19,501 nucleotides of DNA, from UHGV virus genome UHGV-0193858; one strand, given 5' to 3'. The stretch is from a virus. Every line of letters begins with the position of its first letter. Position 1 is the stretch's first letter. Under the pieces are notes generated by a model, which was not told the origin of the DNA, ran no database searches, and saw only the letters and a program-made list of their open reading frames with translations. The translations under genes and the position numbers were made by a program. Of the stretch, positions 159-19,501 are shown one piece after another.

Positions 159-168
159 TCGGCAAATT

Positions 169-969: not shown

Positions 970-978
970 TTTTTATCC

Positions 979-3042: not shown

Positions 3043-3050
3043 CGCCTTAC

Positions 3051-4429: not shown

Positions 4430-5192
4430 ACTAAACCATTCGCTCCTTTTCCTGATGAATAGTTACCATTCCCCCCGGCACCACCTGAGCCGGGGAAACC
4501 GCCATCATCGCCAGAACTACCGAAGTGGCCATTGCCACCCGTTGATGAAAATGCAGATCCTCCAGCCCCGCCAATAAAAGCATCAGAACCATAATACAGA
4601 CCACCTTGAGATATTCCGCCAGTAATATTTAAAATGTTCCCGCCACTTCCGATACCTCCAGCAGGAACTGTAGCCCCGCCACCACTCCCTCCAGTAGCTG
4701 AGATTAAACTCCCGAACCTTGTATCACCACCATTCCCGCCTTTAGACGAGACACCAGCAGCAACAGCACTGCCACCAGTACCTATCGTCACAGATATAGT
4801 TTCGTTATCAGAAATATTAAATAACCCTTCCGAAAATCCACCAGCACAACCTCCAGATGCGCCCACACTAACTGGAGCATTCTGGCCACCTCCCCCGCTC
4901 CCCAAACTTTCACCCGCACTCTTTTCGTCCCTTTAGTTGGAGTGTAAGTCCCTGACTTAGTAAAGGTGACAATATTAAGCAGGCGACCGCCACCAATCGC
5001 TTTAAGAACCTGTGAATCATCATCAGGATCAAGCTCAAGCCCCGCGCCCTCAACAACGTTTACCAGCTCACGCTGAAAGGTATTCATCATCTCAGCATTA
5101 ATTATTGTCGGTGAAATACCATTAGCGACATTACCATTAGTGTATTCACCATTAGCATCAGCGGTGTCAGTTGTACTGCCAACTTTTCTCAT
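4408..5192 (-). CDS. Tail fibre protein (conserved N-terminal domain plus glycine-rich C-terminal domain), split between two frames by a 1-nt frameshift in a G-run
   Basis: ORF 4788..5192 encodes an N-terminus typical of Mu/P2-type fibres (FQRELVNVVEGAGLELDPDDDSQVLKAI ... TFTKSGTYTPTKGTKRVRVKVWGAG). ORF 4408..4905 encodes the Gly-rich continuation in another frame and has a TTG start. Both frames are open across 4788..4932. Adding one G to the GGGGG run (plus-strand C5 at 4892..4896) gives a continuous 261-codon ORF reading ...VKVWGAGGGGGQNAPVSVG... Confidence 0.6.
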
Positions 5193-5218
5193 ATAAACCT
5201 TCTTTTTAAATGTCTGAA

Positions 5219-5893
5219 TTAAACGTAACCGGAAGCGATATCAAATATTTTGGCAAACTCAGGCGTGACTTCGTAAACCCCCTCATCGTTAAAACCGAAA
5301 TAGATATAGCCGAATTTGACCAGGGTGTATGAGGGGGCGAGGGCATTAATCCGGCATTCAAGCTGACGATTACCCCAGGAACGTAATGGATCGCCACAAT
5401 AACTCAGACCCGCACGGGCATAAGTTATCGTTGTGTCTTCCGCCTCTACCAGCCAGACAAATGGCCAGTCATCCCCATTTAGCCCGTCACCACATACCGA
5501 TAAGCCAGCACGCGCCTGCCGGTATTCCTTAATCGAAATCGTATAACCCATTGCTGCGGCAATACTGATGAAATAGCTCTTTGACTGCCCGCCGGTACTG
5601 ATGAGTTTCGATACAATGTCAGACTGACGCTTCGCAATCGTATCCACTTCGCCAATCGAGCAATCATCAGGTAAGCCGAGTGTTTTTTCCCACTCGGTGA
5701 GCATAATCGTCGCAGTTTTTGGAAAGGCACCGCGCAGCAATGCAAGTGCGTCGTTATCACTTCGCTGGAAACTGGCCGCAATGGCCCGCAGTACAGCGGC
5801 CTGAACAGCTTTTGGATCCCGTGTCCACGCTCGGCCGGTGGGGATAAGCGCCTGCAGTGCCTTCTGATAATCGTCTGTTGAGAAAAGGCTCAT
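5219..5893 (-). CDS. Phage tail protein, DUF2313 family (Mu gp48 / P2 gpI / e14 YmfQ-like)
   Basis: 224 aa, position directly after the J-like gene, and the N-terminal pattern LIPTGRAW ... LTEWEKTLGLP typical of this family. Its start overlaps the J-like stop. Confidence 0.7.
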   Translation of the reverse strand: MSLFSTDDYQKALQALIPTGRAWTRDPKAVQAAVLRAIAASFQRSDNDALALLRGAFPKTATIMLTEWEKTLGLPDDCSIGEVDTIAKRQSDIVSKLISTGGQSKSYFISIAAAMGYTISIKEYRQARAGLSVCGDGLNGDDWPFVWLVEAEDTTITYARAGLSYCGDPLRSWGNRQLECRINALAPSYTLVKFGYIYFGFNDEGVYEVTPEFAKIFDIASGYV

Positions 5894-7038
5894 GTGTAGT
5901 TCACCTCACCACGAACAGCCAGCTCCCCAACTCCCGGCTCAATATTCGCAGAAGGCGACACAAGGATATAACCTGAAGTACCGGCAACATCCCCTATCGC
6001 ACGGTTGAGATCTGAAAGGTAAATTTTCCCTGTGCCGAGCGGGTTAGCGGATTCAAACAATACCCCGTCAATCGCATCAGCAATGGCCGCAGTCGTTGCG
6101 CTGTCGGCATCAGATATCCCGCCTATTTCAAAATCGATAACGCGTTCGATGGGAGAGCAGACATAGTTAAGGGAAGTAACCGGCGCAAGCGGATACATAT
6201 AATCGGCAACTCTCCCCTGATCCCCGGTGGCTTTTACAGCCCCCCACTCTTCCAGTTGAGAGACACCGTCAGTTCCTACAGGGAATCCATGATTGGTTTT
6301 ATCATCGCCGTCGCACATGATGTAAATCACCACGGTACCCGGCCCCATCCCCCGGCGCCGTATCCATGCCCTGGTAATCCCCGACACGGATAAAGCCCAG
6401 CTTTTATAATCAGTGTCACTCCCGCCCTGCGGGGGATTCTGATACGCCAGCAGACCACGTAATCGGAAATCCTCTTCACTTTCAATGTTGGCGCCGCCGG
6501 TGGCGGGCTCAATCAGCGTAACCGAGCTGTCTATGCCGGGGGCATTAGCATCCAGTGTAAGAATGGTGCCAGCATCGGCATTTCCGGAAGCGCCTCCTCC
6601 TGTCACATCGTCTGTGATATCCGGCAAAACCGCTGTTACAGCAACCGACGCACTGCCAGCAGTGTTTATCGTTATGGCATCATCGGTTGTGTACTGGTAA
6701 CCATCATCACGGTTTAACACCGCCCCTTTTGACAGTGTTTTCCCCGGCGTTCCGGTAACGGTCGCCGCCGGAGAGCGTGCTGCCGTTGCGGCTTTTCGGT
6801 AAATCTGCTTTAGCGCCATCCATCCGGCAAGCCACTCATCGGTAGAGGTGAAAGGCGTGCTCTGACGGGCAATATAATCCAGGTAGGCGTAGTGCAGATG
6901 GGCCATGCCCGCATCCATATCAGCGAGCACCTTAAGGTTGCCAAACCGTAACAGCGCGCCAACACTTTCAAGCTCTGCCTGCATAAACTGGCGATTCTCC
7001 TGCCGGAGCTCGCTCAGTGTTTTCCGCTTAAATGGCAT
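5890..7038 (-). CDS. Baseplate J-like protein (Mu gp47-like)
   Basis: 382 aa, placed between the gp46-like and DUF2313 genes, with overlapping stop/start codons on both sides as in Mu-type baseplate operons. Confidence 0.75.
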   Translation of the reverse strand: MPFKRKTLSELRQENRQFMQAELESVGALLRFGNLKVLADMDAGMAHLHYAYLDYIARQSTPFTSTDEWLAGWMALKQIYRKAATAARSPAATVTGTPGKTLSKGAVLNRDDGYQYTTDDAITINTAGSASVAVTAVLPDITDDVTGGGASGNADAGTILTLDANAPGIDSSVTLIEPATGGANIESEEDFRLRGLLAYQNPPQGGSDTDYKSWALSVSGITRAWIRRRGMGPGTVVIYIMCDGDDKTNHGFPVGTDGVSQLEEWGAVKATGDQGRVADYMYPLAPVTSLNYVCSPIERVIDFEIGGISDADSATTAAIADAIDGVLFESANPLGTGKIYLSDLNRAIGDVAGTSGYILVSPSANIEPGVGELAVRGEVNYT

Positions 7039-7477
7039 TATTCAGTTGCTCCCATAGCCAGAAGAATTTGAACTCCTGCCAGTCCCCCGCCGGCGGCAAA
7101 TACCGGATGATGAGGTTCAGCCTATTCGGGAAAACAATCTCTGACTGAGCCTCTATCGCTGCTGCAATACCATCCGACTTCATCCAGGCCAGAGCCTCTT
7201 CGGCATAATCTTCAGCTCTCATCGCCACTTCGCGCGTCAGTTTTTCACGCCGCAGTAGCCACAGCCTTGAGCCAATATTCCGGTCGTTGTCCAGATCCCC
7301 CCACCAGCCGCGGCGGTCAGTTCCTTCATAATCATCATCAGCGCGCGCCAGTCCGTCAGTAAACAAACTGATAATTATGGCCGTGTGCATATCATTCTCA
7401 GATGTCAGTACGCCGTTACCGGTTTGCCAGTCAGCATGAATGGCATCCACATCCCAGAATGAGGAAATATCACTCAT
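7028..7477 (-). CDS. Baseplate protein, GP46 family (Mu gp46 / P2 gpW-like)
   Basis: 149 aa, with N-terminal W..DL....GDL and a TAIIISLFTD segment as I remember for GP46-family proteins. Position between the V-like and J-like genes. Confidence 0.65.
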   Translation of the reverse strand: MSDISSFWDVDAIHADWQTGNGVLTSENDMHTAIIISLFTDGLARADDDYEGTDRRGWWGDLDNDRNIGSRLWLLRREKLTREVAMRAEDYAEEALAWMKSDGIAAAIEAQSEIVFPNRLNLIIRYLPPAGDWQEFKFFWLWEQLNNAI

Positions 7478-8055
7478 ACCTGACTCTCTGTTTTTTCGCT
7501 TATGATCGTGCTATCGCCGGACTGAACTTTTTTAACGTCATGGTCATGATCGTTGTGAGCATCCCGCAGCGCTTTGAGCGTTGAATTGTTCGTCTCGCAG
7601 TTATCGATGATGTCACCCGTCACCAGGAGTTTGGGGGTAACCAGCTTTACCTGTTCCGTTGCCGTCGCGGTGATGTTTCTGGCATTATTGATCTCTACAT
7701 CTTTGCCTTTCGCATCAATGAAAATTCCCTCCTCGGTCAGATGAATATTCATCCCCTGCTGGTTATAGACCACGGTTTCGCCTGGCTTAAGCCCGGTATA
7801 CCGGAAGCTTTGATGGTTAGAGGCAATGACGACAGGACTGGAGCGGTCCCCGCCGAGAAAGGCAATAAGCACATCCGATCCCGCCGGTAACCCCGATGAA
7901 AAACCAAAATCAGAGAGCCGTGGGGCGCTGGCCACTTCCAGCGGAGTCTGGTACTGGATTTCCTGCACAACCCCGCTATCTTTCTGCGTGGTAATACGGC
8001 CAATGCCCAGCATGCCGGCGATGCGCGTGGCCGATTTCTTTAAATTTTGATTCAT
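7474..8055 (-). CDS. Baseplate assembly protein V / central spike (Mu gp45-like)
   Basis: 193 aa, size and position after the hub gene, and a C-terminal histidine cluster (HNDHDHD) reminiscent of metal-binding spike tips. Confidence 0.65.
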   Translation of the reverse strand: MNQNLKKSATRIAGMLGIGRITTQKDSGVVQEIQYQTPLEVASAPRLSDFGFSSGLPAGSDVLIAFLGGDRSSPVVIASNHQSFRYTGLKPGETVVYNQQGMNIHLTEEGIFIDAKGKDVEINNARNITATATEQVKLVTPKLLVTGDIIDNCETNNSTLKALRDAHNDHDHDVKKVQSGDSTIISEKTESQV

Positions 8056-9137
8056 TGGTTTAGTCCGGGTATTTGCTGGTAGAAAGCATAAGGCTGGACA
8101 GCGAAAGCCTCCGGGGGCATCAGATAAAGGCGCGCATGGGTGCCGTCACTGTCTCTGATATAAGTCACCTCTGCGATAAGCAATTCGGTGTCAGGCAGCT
8201 GCAGACTCGGGATGTTGACCGGGATAAGCGTATTCGGCTCCCATAATTTCCCGGATTTATCGCGCCAGGAATCAATCGTCACCGTTAACTGACGGGAACG
8301 GCCGTATCGGCGGTTCATCTCCCAGTCAATCGCTCGCTGAGCCTGTTGTGAAGCCATCAGTGTACTTTCAACAATAATGATCCGTTTTCGGTAACGCATA
8401 CTGGCCGCCTCAGGATCGCGGGCCGTCGCCAGCGTCACCGAATCATAAGCCGTATCTGGCGAGAATCCTGCAATCGGCGAAATGCTCATCGATACGCCGA
8501 CGTAATCAGAAAAGCGGTCAGCCATCGAACGGCGGTAATAAGCCTGTTCGATATTTACCCCTTCTGCGATACCGCTGGCCGCGCGCTTTGTCCCCACCCG
8601 GGTCAGAAATAAGTTACCGTCAGGCTGATCGTAATAAAGCAATGCCGACCAGCGGGAGACACGATCAAGTATTTCCTGTGGCGATTCCCCCCAGTTCAGG
8701 GAAAATTGCGGAACTTTCACCAGATCATCAACGTCTGTACTTACGCCAATGTTGTAATGGGATGCGAGGCGGGAGGCTATATCAAGCGCATTACTGTTAT
8801 TGATGACGTTATTTGGCCATTCAGCAGAGCAATCAACGAGATCTGCGCACTTACTGCGGCCTGAGGCTCTGACTTCATGGCGCGAACGGGAAATAGCAGG
8901 CGACCAGTCATCAACATACCCCGTCACTACCAGGTCGTTACCAAGCTTTACCTGACAAGGCATCCCTTCCTTTACCAGCTGCTTCTGGTCACTTCCCGGA
9001 AAATAATCCATCAGTCCCAGGTCAAAATCGGAGGGAAAACGCTCAATGCCACGGGTCACCCGCACAGAGTCCCATCCTTCAATGATTTTTCCGCCCACTG
9101 TCAGGGAGACAATATCCTGATCATTATCCGTACTCAT
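8052..9137 (-). CDS. Baseplate hub / tail protein (Mu gp44, P2 gpD-like)
   Basis: 361 aa, lying immediately upstream of the V-like, gp46-like and J-like genes in Mu order. Called from position and size; I do not recall a diagnostic motif. Confidence 0.6.
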   Translation of the reverse strand: MSTDNDQDIVSLTVGGKIIEGWDSVRVTRGIERFPSDFDLGLMDYFPGSDQKQLVKEGMPCQVKLGNDLVVTGYVDDWSPAISRSRHEVRASGRSKCADLVDCSAEWPNNVINNSNALDIASRLASHYNIGVSTDVDDLVKVPQFSLNWGESPQEILDRVSRWSALLYYDQPDGNLFLTRVGTKRAASGIAEGVNIEQAYYRRSMADRFSDYVGVSMSISPIAGFSPDTAYDSVTLATARDPEAASMRYRKRIIIVESTLMASQQAQRAIDWEMNRRYGRSRQLTVTIDSWRDKSGKLWEPNTLIPVNIPSLQLPDTELLIAEVTYIRDSDGTHARLYLMPPEAFAVQPYAFYQQIPGLNQ

Positions 9138-9520
9138 TGTCTCAACACCTTCATCGTCGTCGGCATAAATGCCGGATGCGGTACGCTGGCCTCCTGTATC
9201 AGTTCATTTGCCCGCGAGGCATCCTGATACAGGCGGTTGGCCAGTACCAGGGCAGGAACCGGCACCGCAGTATTGATTTGCATCAACTCACTCAGTCCGG
9301 ATGAAGTCTGAGCCATGGTATTCAGAAAAGCGGTTCTCACGTCCATCAATGCCGTATAAAGATCATCATCGCCACGGTCGCCCGCCAGTAGTAACGCGGT
9401 ATCCAGTTGCCCGGCCACGCGTTGAGTGATTTCTTCGGCCTCATTACGACTGGTTGGGTTGTAATCTGCAGCAGCATCCGTCATGGCTCCGGTACATAGC
9501 ACTACGATCAGCGTGTTCAT
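9134..9520 (-). CDS. Probable C-terminal remnant of the tail gene upstream of the hub (Mu gp43-like?), truncated by a deletion
   Basis: 128-aa ORF translationally coupled to the hub gene (ATGA overlap). Its frame is closed by a stop about 20 codons upstream of the first ATG. Its 5' end overlaps the 3' end of the decoration-protein ORF by 77 nt. Confidence 0.35.
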   Translation of the reverse strand: MNTLIVVLCTGAMTDAAADYNPTSRNEAEEITQRVAGQLDTALLLAGDRGDDDLYTALMDVRTAFLNTMAQTSSGLSELMQINTAVPVPALVLANRLYQDASRANELIQEASVPHPAFMPTTMKVLRQ

Positions 9521-9953
9521 GGTGCCAGCCAGTTGCTGGCTGCTTTCGGAACGCTGGTAAAGGTGCCTGGGCGCTGTCTTTCAGGAAGATGGCCAGCGGA
9601 CGTAGTGCTGTTTTCAGTTCCGGCGCAGTCCAGGAATCGTCAAAAATAATATGATTCTGGTTGAACTCGCCCATCAGGTACAGGCCGCCGGACTGATCGC
9701 CATGGGTGGAAGCGTCAACATCATCAACCAGAATGGCCGCTGGCGTCTCGCTACCATCCGTTGCGGTTTTCACACTGGCTGTATATTTGCCACTGGCGGT
9801 GATCATGCCAAGCACAGTGCCACGCTTATACACACCGCCGGTGATCGTGCCGGTGTCAGTGACCAGTTGCAGCGTACCGGCAATTAACTGATCCGGCACA
9901 AACACTGAACTCTTCATGCCAGGTGCAAAGGCATTCTGACCAAATTGATCCAT
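9444..9953 (-). CDS. Head decoration protein (lambda gpD-like) with an aberrant C-terminal extension
   Basis: The first ~125 aa resemble lambda gpD in length and pattern (TDG ... GILV ... GGLY ... W, ending ...LAIFLKDS). The last ~40 aa (AQAPLPAFRKQ...CCCRLQPNQS) have no counterpart and overlap the next ORF. Confidence 0.55.
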   Translation of the reverse strand: MDQFGQNAFAPGMKSSVFVPDQLIAGTLQLVTDTGTITGGVYKRGTVLGMITASGKYTASVKTATDGSETPAAILVDDVDASTHGDQSGGLYLMGEFNQNHIIFDDSWTAPELKTALRPLAIFLKDSAQAPLPAFRKQPATGWHHEHADRSAMYRSHDGCCCRLQPNQS

Positions 9954-10543
9954 TATTTCTCTCCTTTAATGGAGTTGTAGAGGCCGGTCATCTGGTTTAC
10001 CAGTGCCGATTTACCGTTCTCTTTCTTGCCGCCATCCGGATTCAGACGGACATCATGGCTTTCCTGCATGCGCTGATCGAGAGAGCGCCCGCGCGTTGCC
10101 TTTGGTTGCAAGGCTGGCGCCGTGGATGCCAGAACATCGATAGCGGCGGTAGAGCTCATCCCGGTATTGAATGCGAGTGAAGCGGCCAGTGACGGATTCG
10201 CCGCAGCGTGCTTACTGCCGAAGATACGGGCGCAACGTTTACGCTCGGCGGCGCGGGCATTTTTCACCGCTTTGCTTTCTTTGCGGTCATCGTCGCCGTC
10301 ATCTTCGGAATCGTCATCGTCTTCAGCCGCATCCAGGTCGTCACCGTCATCTTCAGCGTCATCATCACGATCGTCGTTTTCCGCGTCATCTTCGCGTTCA
10401 TCGTCCCCGGCATCATCTTCGCGCTCATCCTCTTCCGCGCGACGGCCTTTCGCTTTTTTGGCCTTTTTGTCCTCTTCCTCTTCGGAAGCAGTCGCGCCAC
10501 GGCCAATAAGATGAGCAAAACTAAAAGTCTTTTTCTTCGCCAT
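9953..10543 (-). CDS. Head scaffolding protein (lambda Nu3-like C-terminus) with a ~70-residue acidic Asp/Glu-rich insert; start taken at MAKKK
   Basis: The C-terminal segment AAERKRCARIFGSKHAAANPSLAASLAFNTGMSSTAAIDVLASTAP aligns with the lambda C/Nu3 C-terminus as I recall it. The ATG at 10543 lies 2 nt after the protease stop. The ORF track extends the start to 10627, overlapping the protease. Confidence 0.55.
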   Translation of the reverse strand: MAKKKTFSFAHLIGRGATASEEEEDKKAKKAKGRRAEEDEREDDAGDDEREDDAENDDRDDDAEDDGDDLDAAEDDDDSEDDGDDDRKESKAVKNARAAERKRCARIFGSKHAAANPSLAASLAFNTGMSSTAAIDVLASTAPALQPKATRGRSLDQRMQESHDVRLNPDGGKKENGKSALVNQMTGLYNSIKGEK

Positions 10544-10544
10544 T

Positions 10545-11411
10545 TCAGGCTCCTGTTTTTTCAAGTAAGTTTCTGAACGCAGCATCAGGAGGACACACCT
10601 CATCAGCCAGTCCAAGTTCCACACCATCAGCAGCCATAAAACAGGCAGCCTGAGTACTTTTGATAACCTTTGCGCTAATCCCCCGATTTCTGGCGACGGT
10701 ATTCACAAACAATTCGCCCATGGTGTTGATGTCCTGCTGAATAGCCGCCAGCGCTTCATCTGACAGCTCTCTCAGCGGTGCCCCCTCAGCCTTACGGGAA
10801 CCGTAGGTGATGATGGTGACTTTGAGGCCGTCATCTTTTATCCGCTGGGTCCAGTCAAGGTGCATAGTGATCACACCAACTGAACCCACACCACCGGTTC
10901 GGGGAACAGAAATCCGGTCCGCCGCACTGGCAATCGCATAGGCGGCGGAATAGGCGCTTTCCGTCAGAATGGCATGGATGGGCTTTTTCCCGCGGGCGCC
11001 ATAAATGACATCGACCAGATCGAAACATCCGGCGACCTCGCCTCCTGGCGAATCAATATCCAGGCAGATCCCTGTAATATCGGGGTCTTCCATCGCAGTC
11101 AGGAAGGCCTGACGAATGCCGTCATAGCCTGTCATGCCACTGTATGGGCGCAGGCTACCCAGCTTCTGCACCAGGGTCCCACATATCGGGATGACAGCGA
11201 CGCCCAACACATTGTCATAACCCGGGTCGCTACGGGATTCCCGCCCCCTGTTATCGTCGTATCCATACCAGTCATCATCCATGGCAAGAGAGGATTCGAT
11301 TTTACTGATGCCAAACCGGTCCATAACGGATGCCATGATGACTTCAGCTTTACTTGGGTGCAGCGCCAGCGGTGTATTAAAAAGGCGCTGGGCCAGATGA
11401 GGTAGATTCAC
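10545..11411 (-). CDS. Prohead protease, S49 (ClpP/SppA-like) family, lambda gpC N-terminal domain-like
   Basis: 288 aa. LRPYSGMTGYDGIRQAF ... ICLDIDSPGGEVAGCFDLVDVI closely matches the lambda gpC protease domain (LQPYSGMTGYNGI ... LLDMDTPGGMVAGAFD). Confidence 0.85.
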   Translation of the reverse strand: MNLPHLAQRLFNTPLALHPSKAEVIMASVMDRFGISKIESSLAMDDDWYGYDDNRGRESRSDPGYDNVLGVAVIPICGTLVQKLGSLRPYSGMTGYDGIRQAFLTAMEDPDITGICLDIDSPGGEVAGCFDLVDVIYGARGKKPIHAILTESAYSAAYAIASAADRISVPRTGGVGSVGVITMHLDWTQRIKDDGLKVTIITYGSRKAEGAPLRELSDEALAAIQQDINTMGELFVNTVARNRGISAKVIKSTQAACFMAADGVELGLADEVCPPDAAFRNLLEKTGA

Positions 11412-13042
11412 TTTTCCTCCGGATCGGTAATTGTCTGGCTGGCGAACTGGTCCGCCTGCGCCCAGCTAGGTAATGGAAGTCCGCGCTTCAGGCAGGACTC
11501 AATTTCCCGCTGGCGCTGATCAAGTATCTCTTCCCAGTCCTCACCCACGTTTTCACCCACTTCAATTTCGAGAGTGGAAAGGCCGGCATCGAGGCCGAGA
11601 ATGGCGCCTTTTTTCTCTGCCACCGGATCAACCCATCCTCGCCCCGGCCCCATCCAGCGCGCACGGGAATACGCTGCCCGGGCATCAACAAAATCAGGGG
11701 CATCATTAGGTAGAGGTAAATCCTCGTTATCGTGAACTTCCTCCACAAAGGCCGTCAGAAGCGGCTGAGCGGTACCCATGGAGAAATCATCACGTCGGCG
11801 GGTGAGCGTTTTCCATGCCTCCAGCAAGGAAGATCGCGCAGAGCTGTAATTCACATCAGACCAGTCCTGTGTAACCTGCTGAGGAGATAACCCCGTACCG
11901 GATGAGAAATTACGCAATACTGCAGACTCGAAAACCTCAAAGTTGCTGTAAGGGCGGGCAGCGTTGACCGTTGTTATTCTCTCCCCTGGATAAAGGATCG
12001 GCATACGGGCGCCATTCTGCAGCGTCAAACGGCGATCATTATGAAACTCTGCACGACCATCCTGGTATGCTCCCAATCCCTCTTCGAAGTTTTCCCCCAG
12101 CGCGGACTGGATCATTTCGGGATCGTATGGAGACTCAATATACGCGGCGAAGATAGCATTCAGAATTGCTGCTTCCAGCTCGCTCTGGTCGTACTTCACC
12201 AGCATCTTCAGACGTTGCACTACTGGAGTCAGAATGCCATTCCCCCGATGCTGAGCTCCACGCTCATGGTCAAAGTCGTGCACAACGTGCGGGCGCCCCC
12301 ATGCGGTTTCGCGCGGGATTCGTCGCCATGTCATTGTTTTGGCGCCACTCCACCAGTCACCGATATGTGCTTCACGTATGTGATAAGCCACAGGTGCGCC
12401 GTCAGCATCAATTTCAACGCCGCCGCGGATATTCGGCATATCAAAATTCTGCTGCGGGTTACTGAGTCTGTCGGGATCAACAACCTGCACCGTCGTGGCA
12501 TAACGCCCCTTACCTGGTCCAAGGCGATCGGTGCGATACTGAAGCACCATCAGGGCATCGCCATCAATCAGCTTGTGGCGAAAGGCCAGACGCAACATTT
12601 GTGGAACGGTTAGCTTGCGCTCAACGTCACAATAACGGCCTGTGTCGTATGCCCAGGTTCTCCAGTGGGAAGCGAGTGCTTTTCCGTACTCTTCCGCCCA
12701 TACTGCGTCAAAACTTTTATTACCTGTCATCATCCGTAATACACGATAGTCAGGCTTCATGATCGGACGGAAATTGGCGCCGACCGCATTATCAAGCAGG
12801 CGAGTTATGGCACCATTGGCCCATCCATCATTTCGGACCAGATCCCGCGCACGGGAAACTATACGGTCACGGTAGATATTAATTTCGTTATCCGGTGACC
12901 ATAGTGCGGGCTGCCAGTTCGCCAGTTGATCGCTGAAGGAATCCCCGGCGTCATATGGCACCCGGCTACCGCCCGTCAACATGCTGGGTTTTGGTGCCTG
13001 ATAAGGTCTCCCGTCAGGACCAAGGATTTGCACTTTATTCAT
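11408..13042 (-). CDS. Portal protein, lambda gpB-like
   Basis: 544 aa. ARDLVRNDGWANGAI matches lambda gpB ADDLVRNNGYAANAI. Size and position between the gpW-like and protease genes. Confidence 0.85.
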   Translation of the reverse strand: MNKVQILGPDGRPYQAPKPSMLTGGSRVPYDAGDSFSDQLANWQPALWSPDNEINIYRDRIVSRARDLVRNDGWANGAITRLLDNAVGANFRPIMKPDYRVLRMMTGNKSFDAVWAEEYGKALASHWRTWAYDTGRYCDVERKLTVPQMLRLAFRHKLIDGDALMVLQYRTDRLGPGKGRYATTVQVVDPDRLSNPQQNFDMPNIRGGVEIDADGAPVAYHIREAHIGDWWSGAKTMTWRRIPRETAWGRPHVVHDFDHERGAQHRGNGILTPVVQRLKMLVKYDQSELEAAILNAIFAAYIESPYDPEMIQSALGENFEEGLGAYQDGRAEFHNDRRLTLQNGARMPILYPGERITTVNAARPYSNFEVFESAVLRNFSSGTGLSPQQVTQDWSDVNYSSARSSLLEAWKTLTRRRDDFSMGTAQPLLTAFVEEVHDNEDLPLPNDAPDFVDARAAYSRARWMGPGRGWVDPVAEKKGAILGLDAGLSTLEIEVGENVGEDWEEILDQRQREIESCLKRGLPLPSWAQADQFASQTITDPEEK

Positions 13043-13305
13043 CAGAATCTGAACCTCACTGGCTTCCGTGGCCGGGCGACAATTCCCAGTTGCGCCTGCA
13101 GCAACTGAATCAGCGCCAGCAGGTCGGCGAGAGAGCTTTGCTGATAGGAGACAGAGCGCGTCCCATCACCCTGCGTATAGGAGAATGAGACGCCACGGCT
13201 GCCGGTAGTCAGGTCGATATAAGCCTGCTGCGCTTTCTGCAGAGCGTCTCTGAGCTGCTCATCAGTCATCCCACCAGCAAGTAAGCTCGTGTTTCGGTTA
13301 AACAT
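13042..13305 (-). CDS. Head-tail joining protein, lambda gpW-like
   Basis: 87 aa, between terminase and portal. Pattern similarity to lambda gpW (DLTTGSRGVSF ... SLADLLALIQLLQAQLG versus DLMTGKRVATV ... SVSDLKKYIAELEVQTG). Confidence 0.6.
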   Translation of the reverse strand: MFNRNTSLLAGGMTDEQLRDALQKAQQAYIDLTTGSRGVSFSYTQGDGTRSVSYQQSSLADLLALIQLLQAQLGIVARPRKPVRFRF

Positions 13306-13313
13306 GGTTTTCC

Positions 13314-15446
13314 TTATTGCGGCAGGAGTTTAGAAATGTTCTTACGCTTAACAGGAGCCATAGCCTCATCCACGATGGCACCCGGTAATTCGTAATTGAT
13401 TTTTTCTTCTGGCTCGGCTGGCGCCGGCAGGAACTTATCGGGATCGGCCTGAAGGTTAGCGGCCCGAACATTGAGTTTTAATCCCATATGTTTCAGCCCA
13501 CACAACGCGGCATAGCTGTAAACGAGGCAGTCGAGTGCTTCGTTCGCCCGTCCGGGGATAGGCTCCCAGACACTGAATCGCTGACCGGCCACCACTTTAT
13601 AAACCAGTCGCTCGGCCAGCAGCTGGTTGAAATAGCCGAGGTCACGATCATCCGGGAAGTGCATATAGCCCGCACCGGCAGTACCTAAAGCTGGCGGTTC
13701 AAGATGCAGACGACCACGGACAACATCTTTCGCAGAGTTCACGCCAAGTATAATTGGCCTGAAGCTGGCTTTACTTTTCGATGTCGGTCGCTTGGTTGGC
13801 CAGACGGGGTTGCGTTTCCCACCCTGCGCAGATTCGCCCTTGATAGCCCAGACGCGGCGCCCAAGGCGATCTTTGCAGAACTCATAAACCTTTTGCGTGT
13901 GGTGACCGCCGGAGTCCATACATGCAGCCAGAATATTCAGCCCTCGCCCGTCGCCGCGTCGCCATATCTGTTTCAGGTACGCATCGAGGCGCTTCCAGGG
14001 TTCCTCAGTCTCCAGATCGCCATAAATGACGTCATGCGCAACTGACCACGATTCCTCGTCCCGCCCCCAGCCAGTGATCGTGATTTCGAATCGGTCATCC
14101 TGAGTATCGACGCCCGCAGTTAACAATGCCACGCCATCAGGAACGACGGCCGGGAAGACTTCACGGCGCGCCAGCAGGACATCAACCGGGAGCTGTTTCC
14201 CGTGGTTAGGCCGGTGCGGCAACCCCATCTGGGTGTTCCACCAGGCCTGTTCCTTATCCGGATCCCCTTTCGCATCGAGGTATTTCTTTGCAATGTCCGA
14301 TGGCTTGTCTTTTTGCCAGGGACTGAAGAGTTTTGACGCCTGGTACCCGGCGTGGTGATTATCCAGCGCCTCGGCCCCGCAGTCCGGGCAAATCGCCCGG
14401 TATACGGCATGCCGTTCCGACTCTGACCAGCGCCAGACGGCATCAACACTGCCCTCGTCTCCTTCATGCCATTTCTGGTCGTATTCCATTAATGGTGAAT
14501 GGCGGGAACCACAACATTCAAACGGTTTGGTCTGATGCCAGCGGATTGTCTGTAATGCCCGCAGACGCTCACCCTCTGACCAGCCAGCACCACAACATTC
14601 ACAATGGATCATGGCCGCTTTGGTCAGGTGCTTATCACCTTCTTTTGGCCATTGAACATGTTTGAAGAAATCAAGGAACTGTCGGTGCCCGCAATGGGGG
14701 CAAACTACAGAGGCCCGCCGCTGATCTGAATCTTCGTAACTGTCAGCAATCCGGCTTTCATCTTCGATCGTCGGCGAACAAGCCCGCACGGACAGCCAGT
14801 TAAGGCCAAATGTGGCGGTTCGCTCTTCCGCCAGAGCGATGGGATCGCCCTCACGGGTAATCGGATATTTATCCACCTCATCTGCCAGCAGAACACGGAT
14901 CGGACGGCGCGCAAGGTTATCTGGACTACCGGCGCCGGCCAGCGCCAGAAATCCGCCGGTGAAAGCTTTATACAGAATGGTTTCTTTTGAACTCTTCTGC
15001 TTTGAGTCACCTATGATGTTACGCAGAACTGGCGTTACCCTAACCAGCGGGCTGATGCGTTCTTTGGAAAACTGCTCAGCGGCCTCTTCCTTCGGCTGCA
15101 GGAGCAAAATCGGACATGGGTCGAGGTGCGCAAAATAACCAAACAGGTTTTCCAGCAGCGCGGTTTTCATTAACTGGGTACAGCACATCACGGTGATAAT
15201 GTGGACGCCCGATTCCGTCGCGGCCAGCATAGGACCGCGGGCAATTTCAACCGTTGATGTTTCCCAGTTCCCGGAGGTACTGCCAGCTTCTTTCGCCAGC
15301 TTCCGGTAGTCATCGGCCCATTGCGGGACGCTGATCCGCGGCGGCGGTGTCCACCCTTTCCGGACACTCAGTTGAAGACGCTCAATCTTCCGCTGGGTTA
15401 AACTCTGGTTCTCCGAGGACTGAGATATGTTTGTGGACATGTTCAA
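13314..15446 (-). CDS. Terminase large subunit, lambda gpA-like
   Basis: 710 aa. Contains the VVCPHCG zinc-finger-like motif (lambda VACPHCG), TAGVDTQDDRFEITITGWGRDEESW (lambda TAGIDSQLDRYEMRVWGWGPGEESW) and C-terminal RANEALDCLVYSYAAL (lambda RNEALDCFVYALAAL). Confidence 0.9.
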   Translation of the reverse strand: MNMSTNISQSSENQSLTQRKIERLQLSVRKGWTPPPRISVPQWADDYRKLAKEAGSTSGNWETSTVEIARGPMLAATESGVHIITVMCCTQLMKTALLENLFGYFAHLDPCPILLLQPKEEAAEQFSKERISPLVRVTPVLRNIIGDSKQKSSKETILYKAFTGGFLALAGAGSPDNLARRPIRVLLADEVDKYPITREGDPIALAEERTATFGLNWLSVRACSPTIEDESRIADSYEDSDQRRASVVCPHCGHRQFLDFFKHVQWPKEGDKHLTKAAMIHCECCGAGWSEGERLRALQTIRWHQTKPFECCGSRHSPLMEYDQKWHEGDEGSVDAVWRWSESERHAVYRAICPDCGAEALDNHHAGYQASKLFSPWQKDKPSDIAKKYLDAKGDPDKEQAWWNTQMGLPHRPNHGKQLPVDVLLARREVFPAVVPDGVALLTAGVDTQDDRFEITITGWGRDEESWSVAHDVIYGDLETEEPWKRLDAYLKQIWRRGDGRGLNILAACMDSGGHHTQKVYEFCKDRLGRRVWAIKGESAQGGKRNPVWPTKRPTSKSKASFRPIILGVNSAKDVVRGRLHLEPPALGTAGAGYMHFPDDRDLGYFNQLLAERLVYKVVAGQRFSVWEPIPGRANEALDCLVYSYAALCGLKHMGLKLNVRAANLQADPDKFLPAPAEPEEKINYELPGAIVDEAMAPVKRKNISKLLPQ

Positions 15447-15945
15447 TCAGCACCTCTGTCATCCTGTCCGCCGGCACATTCAGATCGGCGGCTATCAGCG
15501 GTGCCACGCGTGAAGGCCAGTTCAGCCAGGCATCACGCTGCTGGCGAAAGGCGTTAAACAGAACCTCCTCGGCGATGGCCAATTCAATTGTCTGGCCGCT
15601 GTCTTTTTCATACTGGAGCTTTGCCTGCAGGGCCATGTAATTTTCACGGATCCGCGCGGCCTCTTCCCTGGAAAGGACTGCACCTTCTGTAAGCATTATC
15701 TGGCGAACGGTTTCATCAATTTCATCGTCGCCATCATTCCGGGGTGCTGGGGCTTTTTTCTTCTTCGCGTTTGATGCCCGCGGATCTTTTCCATCACGGT
15801 TTTTCTTCAGCGCGGCATCGCTCGCCTCAACATCAATCAGGTCGCCATCCATGACGATAAACCGACCAGCCTTGATCCATCGGCCAATAGTCTTGCGATC
15901 GACGCCTGAATGTTGCGCGTACTGACTCTGGTTCATCGTGGTCAT
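15382..15945 (-). CDS. Terminase small subunit, lambda Nu1-like (winged-HTH N-terminus)
   Basis: N-terminal MNQSQYAQHSGVDRKTIGRWIKAG parallels lambda Nu1 VNKKQLADIFGASIRTIQNWQEQG. Lies immediately upstream of the large subunit, overlapping it by 65 nt. Confidence 0.75.
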   Translation of the reverse strand: MTTMNQSQYAQHSGVDRKTIGRWIKAGRFIVMDGDLIDVEASDAALKKNRDGKDPRASNAKKKKAPAPRNDGDDEIDETVRQIMLTEGAVLSREEAARIRENYMALQAKLQYEKDSGQTIELAIAEEVLFNAFRQQRDAWLNWPSRVAPLIAADLNVPADRMTEVLIEHVHKHISVLGEPEFNPAED

Positions 15946-16092
15946 GGGACATCACCTGGGACATTTTTGGGGTGGGACATTTACCTGGGACATTTTTTCA
16001 ATGTCCCACACGAATGTCCCACTGGAATAAATGGAATAATCCGTGCTGGCTCTGGCGTGGCTGGCGATCCCTTGGGGTGGGACATGGGACAC
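15946..16092. repeat. Array of about eight GGGACAY heptamers in both orientations directly upstream of the small terminase gene; candidate cosB-like terminase-binding sites
   Basis: GGGACAT at 15946, 15958, 15974 and 15987; inverted ATGTCCC at 16001 and 16014; GGGACAT at 16079 and GGGACAC at 16086. The placement mirrors lambda cosB (R sites between cosN and Nu1). Confidence 0.5.
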
Positions 16093-16192
16093 AAAATAAA
16101 AGTTTGTAGCTAGGAAAACACTGCGGCGCGCAATGCCCGTGCCTTACAAAAGTCTCAGGAAGGACCCAAACCCTATGGGGTAGGTATTCAGG

Positions 16193-16717
16193 TCATTTTG
16201 CCGTTCGAATCGCTTCCTCAATCGCCCTACTCAGCGCGCCGGGCATTAAGCCGGCTGCCATTGACCGTGAGCGGTTCATGTAGTCAAGCGTAGGCGTAAC
16301 AGGTAGAGCATCACCAAACCTCACCAGCAGCTTAGGAGCACGCTGTTTCCGCTTTGGTCTGCGCGTACCATTCGCTGAGCGCCGGGCTCGTTTCTTTTTC
16401 GCCTTCTTCGGTTTACGCCTCTGCCAGACAGCATCAACACCATTGACCTCACCTACGAACACATTCGGCTTCGCTTTCAACTGCGACAGCTTATTTCGCG
16501 GCATGTTGCCGTATTTGTTCAGTTTGATGTTCTTTGGATTGAGCAGCGCCTGGCTGTTCAGTTTATGTTCACCACCAAATTCAAAGGGTTCGAGATATTC
16601 AGCGGCGACATCGCGCACAAAGACTTTTGCGCGGAGGTTGTTCTTTCTGGCGCCAGCAGAGCCCACTGAGTTGACGGTGAACGGCGTCGGCGATTCCAGT
16701 TTTCGCCCCAGTGCCAC
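16193..16717 (-). CDS. Hypothetical basic protein (174 aa) with a Lys/Arg-rich tract, lying between the integrase remnant and the cos/terminase region
   Basis: Long open frame on the minus strand with no comparable plus-strand ORF. Contains RRKPKKAKKKRARRSANGTRRPKRKQRAPK. No family recognised. Confidence 0.4.
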   Translation of the reverse strand: MALGRKLESPTPFTVNSVGSAGARKNNLRAKVFVRDVAAEYLEPFEFGGEHKLNSQALLNPKNIKLNKYGNMPRNKLSQLKAKPNVFVGEVNGVDAVWQRRKPKKAKKKRARRSANGTRRPKRKQRAPKLLVRFGDALPVTPTLDYMNRSRSMAAGLMPGALSRAIEEAIRTAK

Positions 16718-17313
16718 CTTTTGCGCTGCGGCGATATCAGCGTGGTTATGTACCAGGTAATCCGTGTGTTGGTGTCGATAAGTTTCCTAAACCCCAGCGC
16801 GACCGCTACATAACTGATGAAGAGTACATAGCTATCTTCACTCATGCGACACCTGCAGTTAAAGCCGCGATGGAAATTGCGTATCTTTGCGCTGCAAGGG
16901 TATCTGATGTTCTTAAAATGAACTGGAATCAGATTCTTGATAAAGGAATTTTCATACAGCAAGGTAAAACTGGTATTAAACAGATCAAAGCCTGGACTGA
17001 GCGTCTTAGTGCGGCTGTGGATATTTGCAGGGAATGGGGACAGGATGGCCCTGTTATCAGGACAATGTATGGTGAGCGTTATTCATACAAGGGATTTAAT
17101 GAAGCATGGAGAAAAGCGAGAAACGCGGCTTCTGAAGAACTTGGTAGGCCACTTGATTGCACCTTCCATGATCTAAAGGCTAAAGGGATCTCAGACTATG
17201 AAGGATCTGGCAGGGATAAGCAAAAATTCAGTGGTCATAAGACAGAATCACAGGTACTTGTTTACGACAGGAAAGTTAAAATCAGCCCAACGTTGAACAA
17301 GAAAATGAGATGA
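16711..17313 (+). pseudogene. Tyrosine integrase, C-terminal catalytic domain only (about 170 N-terminal residues missing); convergent with the tRNA
   Basis: The 200-aa ORF aligns with the lambda Int catalytic half: RDRYITDEEYIAIF versus RSRLTADEYLKIY, FIQQGKTGIKQIKA versus YVEQSKTGVKIAIP, and TFHDLKAKG ... SGHKTESQVLVYDR versus TFHELRSLS ... LGHKSDTMASQYRD. No arm-binding or core-binding N-terminal domain is encoded upstream in any frame. Confidence 0.65.
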
Positions 17314-17320
17314 TTCTTTG

Positions 17321-17355
17321 GCGTCGGAGCATGCTTCGGCGCTAGAATTTTTCTC
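17321..17355 (+). terminator. Candidate intrinsic terminator after the integrase remnant
   Basis: Inverted repeat GCGTCGGAGC / GCTTCGGCGC at 17321..17342 (9-10 bp stem with two G-U pairs) followed by AATTTTTCTC. Confidence 0.45.
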
Positions 17356-17425
17356 AGTGGATTTTCTCAATTTTTCTCATCGGGATGCAGGTCACTGAAA
17401 GGGAATGCTGTAAGTGTTTGAATAG

Positions 17426-17515
17426 TGGCGGAGAGAGGGGGATTTGAACCCCCGGTAGAGTTGCCCCTACTCCGGTTTTCGAGACCGGTCCGTTCAGCCG
17501 CTCCGGCATCTCTCC
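17426..17515 (-). tRNA. serU: tRNA-Ser (anticodon CGA), class II with long variable arm
   Basis: Minus-strand sequence GGAGAGATGCCGGAGCGGCTGAACGGACCGGTCTCGAAAACCGGAGTAGGGGCAACTCTACCGGGGGTTCAAATCCCCCTCTCTCCGCCA. It has a 7-bp acceptor stem (GGAGAGA/TCTCTCC), anticodon stem CCGGT/ACCGG with loop CTCGAAA, T-arm GGGGG-TTCAAAT-CCCCC and a 3' CCA. The serU symbol is from memory of the enterobacterial tRNA-Ser(CGA). Confidence 0.9.
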
Positions 17516-17757
17516 GTTCAGATGGTTGCCATGATGCCAGGAAATTTACACACAACCTTTTCAATAAGTTAGCCATCTTCAAAACTTCATTTTCTCATGA
17601 AATTTTGACATTAGCCCTTAATGATTGGCTGGGAATGCTTTCGCCTCTGAAAGGAGTTGCGAGTGCCTTTCCAGTATCGAATGGCGCTACTTTACCAGCA
17701 TGTTTTTATAGGCTCTTCATCCAGGGGTAAGGATGAAATTTAGGTGCGCACCACTTT

Positions 17758-18150
17758 TCATATTACTGGATAATCATCATCATCCTTCCCTATCCGATTG
17801 ATAACGAATGTCACTACCCCGACAACTGTAACATCATCCAGGGCCTCACCTTCCAACGCTTCACCGTCTCGTGTAATAAATGCCCGGCCCATAATTTTTG
17901 CAAAATCAGTGCCGCCGCCGTATTGAATTAAAACGGTATCTCCTTGCTTTGGTTTTACGAAGCAATCCACTACGGCATAGCCGGTTTCTGTTTGTACTAT
18001 CCGAGTATTGGGGCCGGTACCGCAGAGTGAATCAACGGTCAGACGCCGTTCAACATAGTCAGCAGCTGGCGACGGAAATCCCACGTTATAGCCCTCCGTT
18101 TGGGTTGTATAACTGGAACGTGAGCTCATCGCCTTCCTGCGTTGAGACAT
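17758..18150 (-). CDS. UmuD-like (peptidase S24 fold) protein that appears to lack the serine-nucleophile loop
   Basis: 130 aa. NVGFPSPAADYVERR matches the UmuD cleavage-site region (QCGFPSPAADYVEQR). The C-terminal part aligns with UmuD (GDTVLIQ versus GDIVIAA, FAKIM versus TVKKL, GVVTFVI versus GVVIHVV). No GDSM/GxSM motif is present; the alignment suggests about 12 residues spanning it are absent. Confidence 0.6.
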   Translation of the reverse strand: MSQRRKAMSSRSSYTTQTEGYNVGFPSPAADYVERRLTVDSLCGTGPNTRIVQTETGYAVVDCFVKPKQGDTVLIQYGGGTDFAKIMGRAFITRDGEALEGEALDDVTVVGVVTFVINRIGKDDDDYPVI

Positions 18151-18159
18151 CCCGGAATG

Positions 18160-18318
18160 TCAGTGCTCTATCCACTGGTTAGCCTGGCGCGGTGACCATA
18201 TCCAGTTAACTTTTGCGAGTTCCCGGATAAAACCGGACGTTGTCACGGTGCGACGGCCATTAGGCTCAATGACAATTGCCTGACGCCAGGCTATTTCGAT
18301 ATCTGAGTTTCGCGGCAT
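18160..18318 (-). CDS. Small protein (52 aa), first gene of the LexA-box operon; function unknown
   Basis: ATG at 18318 is preceded by a GGAGGTG Shine-Dalgarno. The 67-aa ORF-track version starts at 18363 and would include the LexA box, so the internal ATG is the more plausible start. The stop lies 9 nt before the UmuD-like start. Confidence 0.45.
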   Translation of the reverse strand: MPRNSDIEIAWRQAIVIEPNGRRTVTTSGFIRELAKVNWIWSPRQANQWIEH

Positions 18319-18336
18319 AACTTCACCTCCCGAAAA

Positions 18337-18356
18337 TACTGTTTTTATATACAGTA
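18337..18356. promoter_or_regulatory. LexA (SOS) box, perfect CTGT-N8-ACAG palindrome
   Basis: Plus strand TACTGTTTTTATATACAGTA; reverse complement TACTGTATATAAAAACAGTA. It lies 18 nt upstream of the small-protein start codon, where it would overlap the promoter -10/start site. Confidence 0.8.
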
Positions 18357-18528
18357 GATTCATTAAGAGATCTGATCAATACAGGTTCCAGCTATCAATC
18401 AGGAACACTGAGGAGGAAACCAGTCACCTTTTAGCCTCTGATATTGGTTTCACTTATTGATTATGTTGTCTATGTGCCAACTATGAACTATCTTTTCTCA
18501 AAACCTGCTACTGCAAAATGGATATAAG

Positions 18529-18654
18529 ATGTCACAGACGGACTTGCTGATTGTTGTTTTTACTCTGGGCATTTTAGCCTTTGGCTATTCCATATGGTTC
18601 ATTTCGAACAGAATACTTTGCTCTATATTTCATAGACTTACAAAGAATATATGA
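18529..18654 (+). CDS. Possible small hydrophobic peptide (41 aa, one predicted TM helix), divergent from the LexA-box operon
   Basis: ATG at 18529 reads MSQTDLLIVVFTLGILAFGYSIWFISNRILCSIFHRLTKNI. The ribosome-binding site is weak; too short to appear in the ORF track. Speculative. Confidence 0.2.
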   Translation: MSQTDLLIVVFTLGILAFGYSIWFISNRILCSIFHRLTKNI

Positions 18655-18793
18655 ATTGGGATGGTATAGACCCAAATTCATGGTCATTGCCCCTCGACGT
18701 CGGAAGGTACTTACAGATCATCTTCGCTCTTAACCTATCACATCGGCACCTACTCCATGATGTAACAGCTCAGACCAGAAATATCTGGAAGCT

Positions 18794-19411
18794 TTAGGCA
18801 TATTCTTGGAAGATAGACGAGCGCAAAGACGCACACAGCAATGATGTTATGTAGTATTTTCCCCTTGAGTGTGCCTGCTCAAGGGGGTTTTTATCGCCGT
18901 ATTGTACTGGCAAATATTTGTAAATAGTCTTCACCCCCACGCCTGTCACATCGGCCACACGCGACTGGACAGGCGGTTAGTCCGGTATGTTTCTCGCGCT
19001 ACTACTGCTTACGTTAACGTCTGGTAATGATCTAGCGGCGCGACGTAAAGCGGCGTTGAAAGCAATTATAGTGACCGGCCGGCATTGGTACTTCACACGG
19101 TTAGAATGGCTCTGAAATAAAAAAACATCTTCTGGATAGCGTTCTCTTCTACGAGCAATGATCCCCTCCACTGGAGGGGTTGATTTAACACGTAGCTCCT
19201 TCAGGTGACCCTGTTTTCGTATCAGTATCAAGTCACCATCAATATCATCATATCGAATACTCAGCAGCCTTCCAGCGCTTAAACCCGTGTGAAAAATTAA
19301 CGCCCACAAATCAGCCCATGTATCTGAGATGGAAACAAGATTGCTGTTAATAGTTAAAAATTGCTCAAAACTTATTGTTTTCTTACCGTTCACGAACAAA
19401 CCAAACTGTTT
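18794..19411 (-). pseudogene. Recombinase-like gene remnant: tyrosine-recombinase-like N-terminal part, in-frame TAA, then a Hin-like HTH segment; no ATG start
   Basis: ORF 18977..19399 (TTG start) has the pattern HTGLSAGRLLSIRYDDIDGDLILIRKQG ... DVFLFQSHSNRVKYQCRPVTIIAFNAALRRAA, like a tyrosine recombinase core but with the expected Arg and His-x-x-Arg positions altered. After TAA at 18977..18979 the same frame stays open for 60 codons (PPVQSRVADVTGVGVKTIYKYLP...). Confidence 0.4.
18861..18892 (+). terminator. Candidate intrinsic terminator (plus strand)
   Basis: Perfect 9-bp stem CCCCTTGAG / CTCAAGGGG with an 8-nt loop, followed by GTTTTT. Confidence 0.5.
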
Positions 19412-19501
19412 TCAAAGCTGAATGAATTGATTAAGCCAAACGTAACATATCAGGAAAAGTAGTGAAATCTTTGCCTTCAAGTCGCCGGGAGGTACTTGTA
19501 G

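Follow-up and report, generated by a model that had tools for sequence, protein, structure and literature searches.

Eight heptamers beside a small terminase gene: a candidate cosB subsite in a defective Escherichia coli prophage

The virus genome UHGV-0193858, a 19,501-nucleotide stretch of DNA analyzed here in full and called the window below, carries a dense array of GGGACAY heptamers at positions 15946-16092, directly upstream of the gene for the small terminase subunit (TerS, gene terS). What is such an array for? A sequence-only reading had proposed that the heptamers are recognition elements of the small terminase, comparable to the R sites of the phage lambda cosB. Based on the comparisons described below, the array is, with high likelihood, the cosB part of a cohesive-end packaging site (cos) like that of lambda, and very probably a cosB-type element in a form different from that of lambda rather than a separate kind of element. 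The proposed role of the repeats is supported by their position, by a conservation footprint, by co-variation with TerS and by a natural swap in E. coli Ec1117, while the likeness to lambda R sites appears to hold in function and position and fails in sequence and architecture. The locus has the sequence features of a lambda-type cos, namely a large terminase subunit (TerL) of the gpA family encoded downstream, a putative cosN equal to a mapped overhang, a 7-bp cosQ-like word about 30 nt before the predicted nick, and repeats that match the TerS specificity. No prior description of these heptamers (TGGGACAT) with a terminase, or of heptamers in a cosB, was found in the literature.

The heptamer array and the neighbouring cos elements

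A pattern search on both strands identified ten GGGACAY words in the 19.5-kb window, eight of them within 15946-16092 and just two in the other 19.35 kb. Thus the array stands as first described from the letters, with eight GGGACAT or GGGACAC words in both orientations within about 150 bp, from the base beside the terS start codon onwards. The copies start at 15946, 15958, 15974, 15987, 16079 and 16086 on the plus strand and at 16001 and 16014 on the minus strand; seven read GGGACAT and one (at 16086) GGGACAC, and the 8-mer TGGGACAY is the extended form of all eight. Shuffled sequences give 4.69 copies per whole window, so that about 0.035 copies are expected in 147 bp, and the Poisson probability of at least eight copies in 147 bp, computed from this rate, is about 1e-16. 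The copies form two groups, the proximal cluster with six members (15946-16020) and, 58 bp away, the distal pair (16079-16092). The elements are as follows, with heptamers numbered from cosN.

15946..16092, minus strand: cosB-like array of eight TGGGACAY heptamers, from presence, layout, footprint and co-variation with TerS class
16079..16092, plus strand: distal heptamer pair (GGGACAT, GGGACAC), bp 45-58 from the left cohesive end, approximately the position of lambda R3
16040..16078, no strand: spacer of variable sequence and kept length (58-68 bp from distal pair to proximal cluster in class A, defined below), from the class A comparison
16023..16039, no strand: two TGGAATAA direct repeats, 9 bp apart, in the inter-cluster spacer (repeat search)
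16014..16020, minus strand: heptamer 3 (GGGACAT; pattern and repeat search)
16001..16007, minus strand: heptamer 4 (GGGACAT), in palindrome arm 16000-16022 (pattern and repeat search)
15987..15993, plus strand: heptamer 5 (GGGACAT), in the opposite palindrome arm, 15972-15994 (pattern and repeat search)
15974..15980, plus strand: heptamer 6 (GGGACAT), in the same arm as heptamer 5 (pattern and repeat search)
15958..15964, plus strand: heptamer 7 (GGGACAT; pattern search)
15946..15952, plus strand: heptamer 8 (GGGACAT), touching the terS ATG (pattern search)

Heptamer 8 directly abuts the start codon (15945-15943, minus strand), and the terS strand has a Shine-Dalgarno-like AGGTGA in the interval from heptamer 7 to heptamer 8. 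The four copies at 15974-16020 build a palindrome with 23-nt arms, and ACCTGGGACATTTTT is present twice in the array, 29 bp apart. The TGGAATAA pair, possibly a bend or a host-factor site, is kept in class A loci of E. coli, Kluyvera, Citrobacter and Salmonella and is absent from those of Morganella, Rahnella and Ewingella.

The sequence-only reading had also placed cosN probably within 16093..16190. This placement agrees with the finding of GCATTGCGCGCC at 16125-16136, which makes that segment the putative cosN. The same 12-mer is the mapped 12-nt 5' overhang of Serratia phage vB_SspM_BZS1 (BZS1 below), which was determined with PhageTerm on virion reads and by end sequencing; its authors verified it by setting the ends of virion DNA against a PCR product that spans cos in the prophage (PMC7556043). 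The BZS1 sequence record opens with a feature 'cosL; left cohesive end', GCATTGCGCGCC. With slashes bounding the 12-mer, the joined ends of that record read ...ATGGGTCCTTCC-N21-CACGG/GCATTGCGCGCC/GCGTTCTGCGTCTAGCTA..., and the terS strand of the window reads ...TTGGGTCCTTCC-N21-CACGG/GCATTGCGCGCC/GCAGTGTTTTCCTAGCTA...; the 12-mer is identical and the flanks are conserved. The nick positions are inferred here by homology and may be 1 nt off.

16161..16167, minus strand: cosQ-like heptamer GGGTCCT (10-mer GGGTCCTTCC at 16158-16167); the 7-mer and its 27-nt spacing are shared with the lambda right end
16125..16136, minus strand: cosN cohesive-end sequence GCATTGCGCGCC on the terS strand, equal to the mapped 12-nt 5' overhang of BZS1
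16093..16124, minus strand: conserved T-tract segment from cosN to the first heptamer, at the position of lambda I2, with GTTTTC at bp 18-23 as in lambda

The lambda end reads ...ACGGGTCCTTTCCGGTGATCCGACAGGTTACG/GGGCGGCGACCT, and GGGTCCT lies 27 nt before ACGGG in lambda and in the window alike. In the lambda sequence record, bp 48,473-48,479 read GGGTCCT; we take these to be the coordinates of cosQ, following Wieczorek and Feiss 2001. Lambda cosQ is a highly conserved 7-bp element that is required for termination of packaging (PMC4669245; PMC4856287). On the other side of cosN, the T-tracts reach bp 44 from the left cohesive end and match in position the lambda I2 segment (defined in PMC4856287). 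The positions of these elements and of the array give the order cosQ, cosN, T-tract segment, heptamer array, terS and terL, as in lambda.

The two halves of the cosN region (GCGCGCCG and CGGGCATT) recur at 16234-16247 within the next gene upstream, in inverted orientation and with their order exchanged. We considered a second cos element there and set the match aside as probably due to chance.

Repeat clusters around a spacer are also a feature of headful packagers: P1 pac consists of hexamer clusters, and in SPP1 the short-repeat clusters pacL and pacR flank a spacer. By this likeness, the array could be a pac-type start region of a P1-like or SPP1-like headful packager with its first cut in the 58-bp gap (SPP1 pac is described in PMC4669245). 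We consider this very unlikely, since TerL belongs to the gpA family and a lambda-like cosQ is present; BZS1, whose TerL is 49% identical to that of the window, has unique 12-nt cohesive ends, and their sequence is conserved here outside the array; and the inter-cluster spacer, where the cut would fall, is the least conserved stretch of the region among class A relatives.

Repeat word and small terminase among relatives

To find further loci we scanned one genome per species with the 19-mer CACGGGCATTGCGCGCCGC, which gave 92 stretches; about 40 of them, with an upstream GGGTCC(T/C)TC, are genuine cos sites, and these come from Enterobacterales, Chromobacterium, Aquitalea, Burkholderiales and Dyella. 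The cosQ-like word GGGTCCT is kept in these approximately 40 loci, with GGGTCCCTCC in its place in Burkholderiales members. Homology among the relatives begins abruptly at GGGTCC, whichever gene lies upstream, and this word is the apparent left edge of the conserved cos module.

For 36 loci that share the common cosN and have a readable TerS, we recorded the most frequent 7-mer (strands collapsed) between cosN and terS, with no motif preset. The commonest 7-mer sorts with the N-terminal class of TerS without exceptions, and the words of classes A, B, C and D were never found in an array of another class. The classes, with shared word cores in parentheses, are as follows.

TerS class A: N-terminal motif YAQHSGVDRKTIGRW; word TGGGACA (GGGACA); 7-9 copies
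TerS class B: motif FAKLHGVSRKTVTxWKARG; word GGTAACA (GGTAAC); 2-8 copies upstream and up to 8 inside terS
TerS class C1: motif SRRSFYNWES; word TTCACACT (AGTGTGA); 4-5 copies
TerS class C2: motif SRQALYTWE; word TTGACACT (AGTGTCA); 5 copies
TerS class D (Chromobacterium): word GTTCGCA; 1 copy upstream, 7 inside terS
TerS class E (Trinickia, one locus): word TGTCCGC, which also occurs once or twice in some genes of other classes; 4 copies inside terS

The same partition was seen in 79 distinct cos regions from IMG/VR, where 58 were class A with TGGGACA and 20 were class B with GGTAACA; the one locus missed by the pattern proved to be class A. No IMG/VR contig was seen to end at the cohesive-end sequence; the matches all looked internal, in a locus table that omits position within the contig and with an initial pattern that began left of the nick and so was unable to match such ends. 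In classes A, B and C alike, the first site lies at bp 45 from cosN. The classes with a short spacer (about 60 bp from cosN to terS) have most of their words inside terS, as 3-8 copies of GGTAACA or 7 of GTTCGCA, and the intragenic GGTAACA copies of class B code for Gly-Asn repeats of the TerS linker. Counting intragenic words together with those upstream of terS, most classes reach a total of about 7-10 per cos. In the protein alignment, the TerS classes differ mostly in their first ~95 residues and are nearly alike from about residue 100 onward, the C-terminal part being highly conserved.

The pairing of word and protein can be followed within one pair of closely related elements. In E. coli Ec1117 (NZ_CP126602), the 510 bp corresponding to 15589-16098 are swapped for a class B N-terminus and a GGTAACA array. 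Identity to the window is 99.4% in the flank from 16738 down to 16099 and 95.4% in the flank that runs from 15588 to lower positions. The swapped segment contains TerS residues 1-119 and the eight heptamers and no other gene, and Ec1117 is a natural recombinant.

15589..16098, minus strand: specificity cassette, TerS residues 1-119 and all eight heptamers, replaced as one unit in E. coli Ec1117

In lambda, specificity of cosB and TerS has been defined with the lambda-21 hybrid hy51 and the lambda-N15 hybrid hy4, in which about 600 bp are swapped and which are viable (PMC4669245). The 510-bp swap of Ec1117 is a natural counterpart of these hybrids.

These data bear on the alternative that the heptamers are operators for some other DNA-binding protein, such as a late regulator, a Xis- or Cox-like protein or a host factor, which controls the terminase operon. 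The last heptamers flank the Shine-Dalgarno sequence and touch the start codon, the nearest fold neighbours of TerS include the repeat-array regulators Xis, BldC and RacA, and PHROG 66 ('excisionase and transcriptional regulator') matches TerS weakly (E=9.4e-5). Nevertheless, the N-terminus of TerS is the sole coding sequence that changes with the repeat word, and the Ec1117 segment has nothing else that could encode such a protein. A scan of 15850-16350 for promoters and terminators found no promoter-like site (in particular, no sigma-70-like promoter) and no terminator-like site, so the regulatory reading gained no support from it. In addition, the array is fixed relative to cosN, with its first site at the same distance in three classes, as expected of a packaging signal and not of an operator. 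A separate operator protein is therefore unlikely, while TerS itself might secondarily autoregulate its own operon at the heptamers.

The conservation footprint was obtained from an alignment of 52 distinct class A cos regions scored against a reference. Heptamer columns are 97% conserved versus 75% in the other columns of the array (Mann-Whitney p=2.5e-11, a value that overstates independence because the 52 sequences are related to one another). In Morganella, Rahnella, Ewingella and one IMG/VR variant, the inter-site and spacer DNA is unrelated to that of the window and the layout of the array is retained: a distal GTGTCCC-ATGTCCC pair at bp 45-59 is followed by a 58-68-bp spacer and then, on the proximal side, by two or three forward and three to six reverse copies. 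The final heptamer touches the ATG in window-like class A loci and in Morganella, Rahnella and Ewingella, and is a degenerate TTGTCCC in the IMG/VR variant. Absence of the repeats from related phages with homologous terminases had been named as a refutation of the sequence-only reading; the comparison was run, and the repeats were there.

In Morganella, Rahnella and Ewingella, the array is also open in the reading frame of terS, where its translation is ...WDMS..MSH..CP.. before MTTMN. Mechanical calling of open reading frames thus adds 20-30 codons of cosB to terS.

TerS relatives are encoded on 236 IMG/VR stretches, of which the best 80 were kept; identity in these is 87% or higher. The array is also present in intact prophages, which are common and measure 41-48 kb, and 63 of 5,426 complete E. 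coli genomes contain matches; E. coli NCTC9040 (NZ_LR134247), with cos near 2,236,600-2,236,820, has an intact class A prophage. This distribution, along with the footprint, is relevant to the view that the repeats have no sequence-specific function and are a relic in decay or the result of slippage. The defective state of the host element (see below) fits that view, as do single-base changes in one or two heptamers of individual relatives. On the other hand, the heptamer columns are far better kept than their neighbours across several genera, all eight copies of the window match the consensus, and the intact prophages retain the array, so we judge a relic or slippage origin quite unlikely for the element as such. 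For the defective copy of the window itself, present-day disuse is likely.

Terminase proteins, predicted mechanism and known systems

15382..15945, minus strand: terS, 187 aa; PHROG 57 'terminase small subunit' (E=1.7e-34, residues 1-186)
13314..15446, minus strand: terL, lambda gpA family with ATPase and nuclease domains (PF05876, 5.6e-66; PF20454, 3.4e-81)

The genes that follow terS encode the gpA-family large terminase, gpW, a lambda-type portal and an S49 protease. TerL shares 28% identity with lambda gpA over 665 aligned columns and 49% with the TerL of BZS1, to which the nuclease half looks much closer in the alignment. The small subunit is less easily placed. No Pfam family matched TerS at E<=0.01 except for a spurious DUF4604 match, and a sequence search of the PDB gave no match; with Nu1 likewise unmatched, TerS is not a member of the Nu1 family by sequence, and PHROGs alone named it a small terminase. 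Nearly all of the homologues listed are 'hypothetical protein' or nameless, and one UniRef entry is a terminase small subunit.

An AlphaFold2 model of TerS, built from 22 homologues (mean predicted local distance difference test score, pLDDT, of 66), has a beta-helix-helix-beta-beta-helix arrangement in residues 1-50 (pLDDT about 80), a disordered linker at residues 52-77 and then long helices. Foldseek neighbours of this model in the PDB are a chain of 6hn7 ('Hijacking the Hijackers'), lambda Nu1 (1j9i), Pukovnik Xis, RacA and BldC. The modelled residues 1-50 are consistent with a Nu1-like or MerR-like winged helix-turn-helix (HTH).

In the mechanism we propose, the N-terminal winged-HTH-like domains of an oligomeric TerS would each read one 7-8-bp word, ATGTCCCA. 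Cooperative binding at the distal pair and the proximal cluster, across the 58-bp spacer, would bend or wrap about 150 bp of DNA. The TerS complex would then anchor the gpA-type TerL, which would nick the two strands of cosN in a staggered manner at a distance of about 33 bp from the distal pair; packaging would run in the direction of terS and stop at the next cosQ-cosN. TerS binding, its stoichiometry, the wrapping of DNA and the exact nick positions are the steps that we infer. A scan of 15946-16170 for the consensus of integration host factor (IHF), WATCAANNNNTTR, with at most one mismatch gave no match, although a weak or non-canonical site could escape such a scan. As there is no IHF consensus in the cos region, the bending model of lambda, in which IHF acts at I1, was not adopted.

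Compared with lambda cos (cosQ-cosN-I2-cosB(R3-I1-R2-R1)-Nu1-A), the locus agrees in the order and spacing of the subsites, with a whole cos of about 220 bp here, in the 12-nt 5' overhang (here by homology to BZS1), in the T-tract segment after cosN with GTTTTC at bp 18-23, and in a first TerS-type site at about bp 45-58, which is the R3 position (PMC4669245), with a second cluster nearer to terS. The architecture of cosB is different: the window has eight words of 7-8 bp where lambda has three R sites of about 16 bp; the words lie, on the terS strand, as two reverse, two forward and four reverse, while lambda R3 and R1 are opposed to R2; and the 58-bp spacer is without an IHF consensus, while lambda has the IHF site I1. 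The cohesive ends share 5 of 12 bases in a direct comparison of the 12-mers, and the TerS of the window has no detectable sequence similarity to Nu1. Lambda and phage 21 share cosQ and cosN and differ in cosB and in the recognition helix of TerS. Our classes follow the same logic on a larger scale, with identical or nearly identical cosQ and cosN and a cosB word and TerS N-terminus that differ together; two or three specificity classes are found on the lambda cosN and at least six on the one described here.

Among sequenced phages, two distant relatives of class B, BZS1 and Citrobacter phage phiNP, agree with the window in cosQ, cosN and the T-tract segment; they also have a homologous TerS and, upstream of cos, a p72-like gene. 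They differ from the window in the word, GGTAACA, with three copies in a 62-bp spacer and 4-7 more inside terS, and their TerS proteins are about 30% identical to that of the window. The paper on BZS1 reports cohesive ends, and the term 'cosB' is absent from its text (PMC7556043). Sites inside the TerS gene have a precedent in phage N15, whose 'simple' cosB consists of R3 and an accessory inverted rR2 located in that gene (PMC4669245). The short-spacer classes B, D and E resemble N15 in this respect; class A of the window does not, with zero heptamers within the terS coding sequence and with many sites in place of a single critical one. Outside packaging, the small MerR-like winged-HTH proteins Xis, BldC and RacA are, with Nu1, the nearest fold neighbours of the N-terminal domain of TerS (E>0.5). 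These proteins bind arrays of short repeats cooperatively, and they differ from TerS in having no packaging role.

Several observations weigh against reading the array as a cosB. TerS has no sequence similarity to lambda Nu1 (BLASTP E=0.26; no Pfam match), and its fold matches are not significant (E>=0.56, with 6hn7 and Nu1 at 0.56-0.59). A class A TerS was not found in sequenced phage isolates (tblastn gave 19 matching records, each below 60% identity, with 33% as the best value). The relatives that make up the footprint are not phylogenetically independent, and the prophage in the window is without genes for the major capsid, the tail sheath and lysis. Relative to the place given by the lambda alignment, the BZS1 nick is shifted by 1 nt to the right, hence the 1-nt uncertainty of the nick positions. 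Finally, since the stretch between the two clusters has no IHF consensus, the lambda bending mechanism is not simply transferable.

Prophage context and significance

Positions 1-17547 of the window correspond to 2064644-2082191 of E. coli HS at 99.97% identity, and 17411-19501 match (97.9%) the HS segment that adjoins window position 1 on its left, so that the window is a circular permutation of the HS element. The overlap between the pieces, at the tRNA-Ser / 'tRNA-OTHER' att repeat, is 137 bp long. The permuted pieces and their 137-bp att overlap make the window look like a joined-ends form, excised or tandem, from another strain.

The element appears unable to form particles alone. In the RefSeq annotation of HS and at window positions 9444-10627, the genes for the S49 protease and a gpD-like head-decoration protein are followed almost at once by baseplate genes, and genes for the major capsid, sheath, tube and tape-measure proteins are not annotated in the head module of the window or in HS. 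The gene upstream of cos (16193-16717), a PHROG 1924 'minor tail protein' homologous to BZS1 p72, stands always just before cos in relatives. Here it is 5'-truncated and fused to an N-terminally truncated tyrosine integrase (16711-17313) beside tRNA-Ser. The integrase fragment is 97-100% identical to Klebsiella phage integrases, and homology to intact relatives stops at about 16738, so that the fragment marks a deletion junction at which the lysis and early regions were removed. By its annotation the prophage is degraded, and this copy of the array therefore lies in a defective element. Its present function is doubtful, and as long as no helper phage with matching specificity is present, this copy is probably idle.

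The integrase fragment also raises another possibility, that the repeats are arm-type sites of an integrase or excisionase, or replication iterons, which came to lie beside terS by chance. The distance from the array to the fragment and to the tRNA-Ser att region is about 0.7-1.4 kb, and arm sites and iterons are likewise short repeats in mixed orientation. Both readings were rejected on synteny and are extremely unlikely: in intact relatives the array has terS as one neighbour and, on its opposite side, cos, the p72-like gene and a lysis module, and an integrase is not found nearby; the fragment in the window is a deletion junction; and the array always travels with terS.

With the array taken as a cosB, a complete putative packaging site (cosQ, cosN, I2-like segment and cosB) can be assigned to a prophage family that is common in enterobacteria. 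This leaves the concept of cos packaging as it was, and that a cos phage has a cosB will be no surprise to a specialist. The cosQ word of lambda and its spacing persist where TerL is only 28% identical to gpA and the cohesive end differs, and cosQ is thus conserved far beyond the group of phages with lambda-like cohesive ends. At least six specificity cassettes share one cutting module. For practical use, the site offers a signature for placing genome ends in prophage predictions, and the array, being readable as an N-terminal extension of terS, is a caution for gene callers. For the study of DNA choice by small terminases, the family provides several naturally matched pairs of TerS and DNA word, and Ec1117 and the window form a ready-made near-isogenic pair for specificity work.

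Taken jointly, these observations may point further, to a tentative reading that we hold as possible rather than probable: the cos family would be a natural combinatorial library of packaging specificities. One module for cutting, made up of cosQ, cosN and the half of TerS that binds TerL, would be shared and combined with at least six interchangeable cassettes, each with a small winged-HTH domain reading its own 7-8-bp word, and the approximately 7-10 words per cos would correspond to about one per subunit of a TerS ring, with about 150 bp wrapped in a nucleosome-like manner without IHF. If this is true, the recognition code would be readable from the class C1/C2 and A/B pairs and could be used to reprogram the packaging of cos phages.

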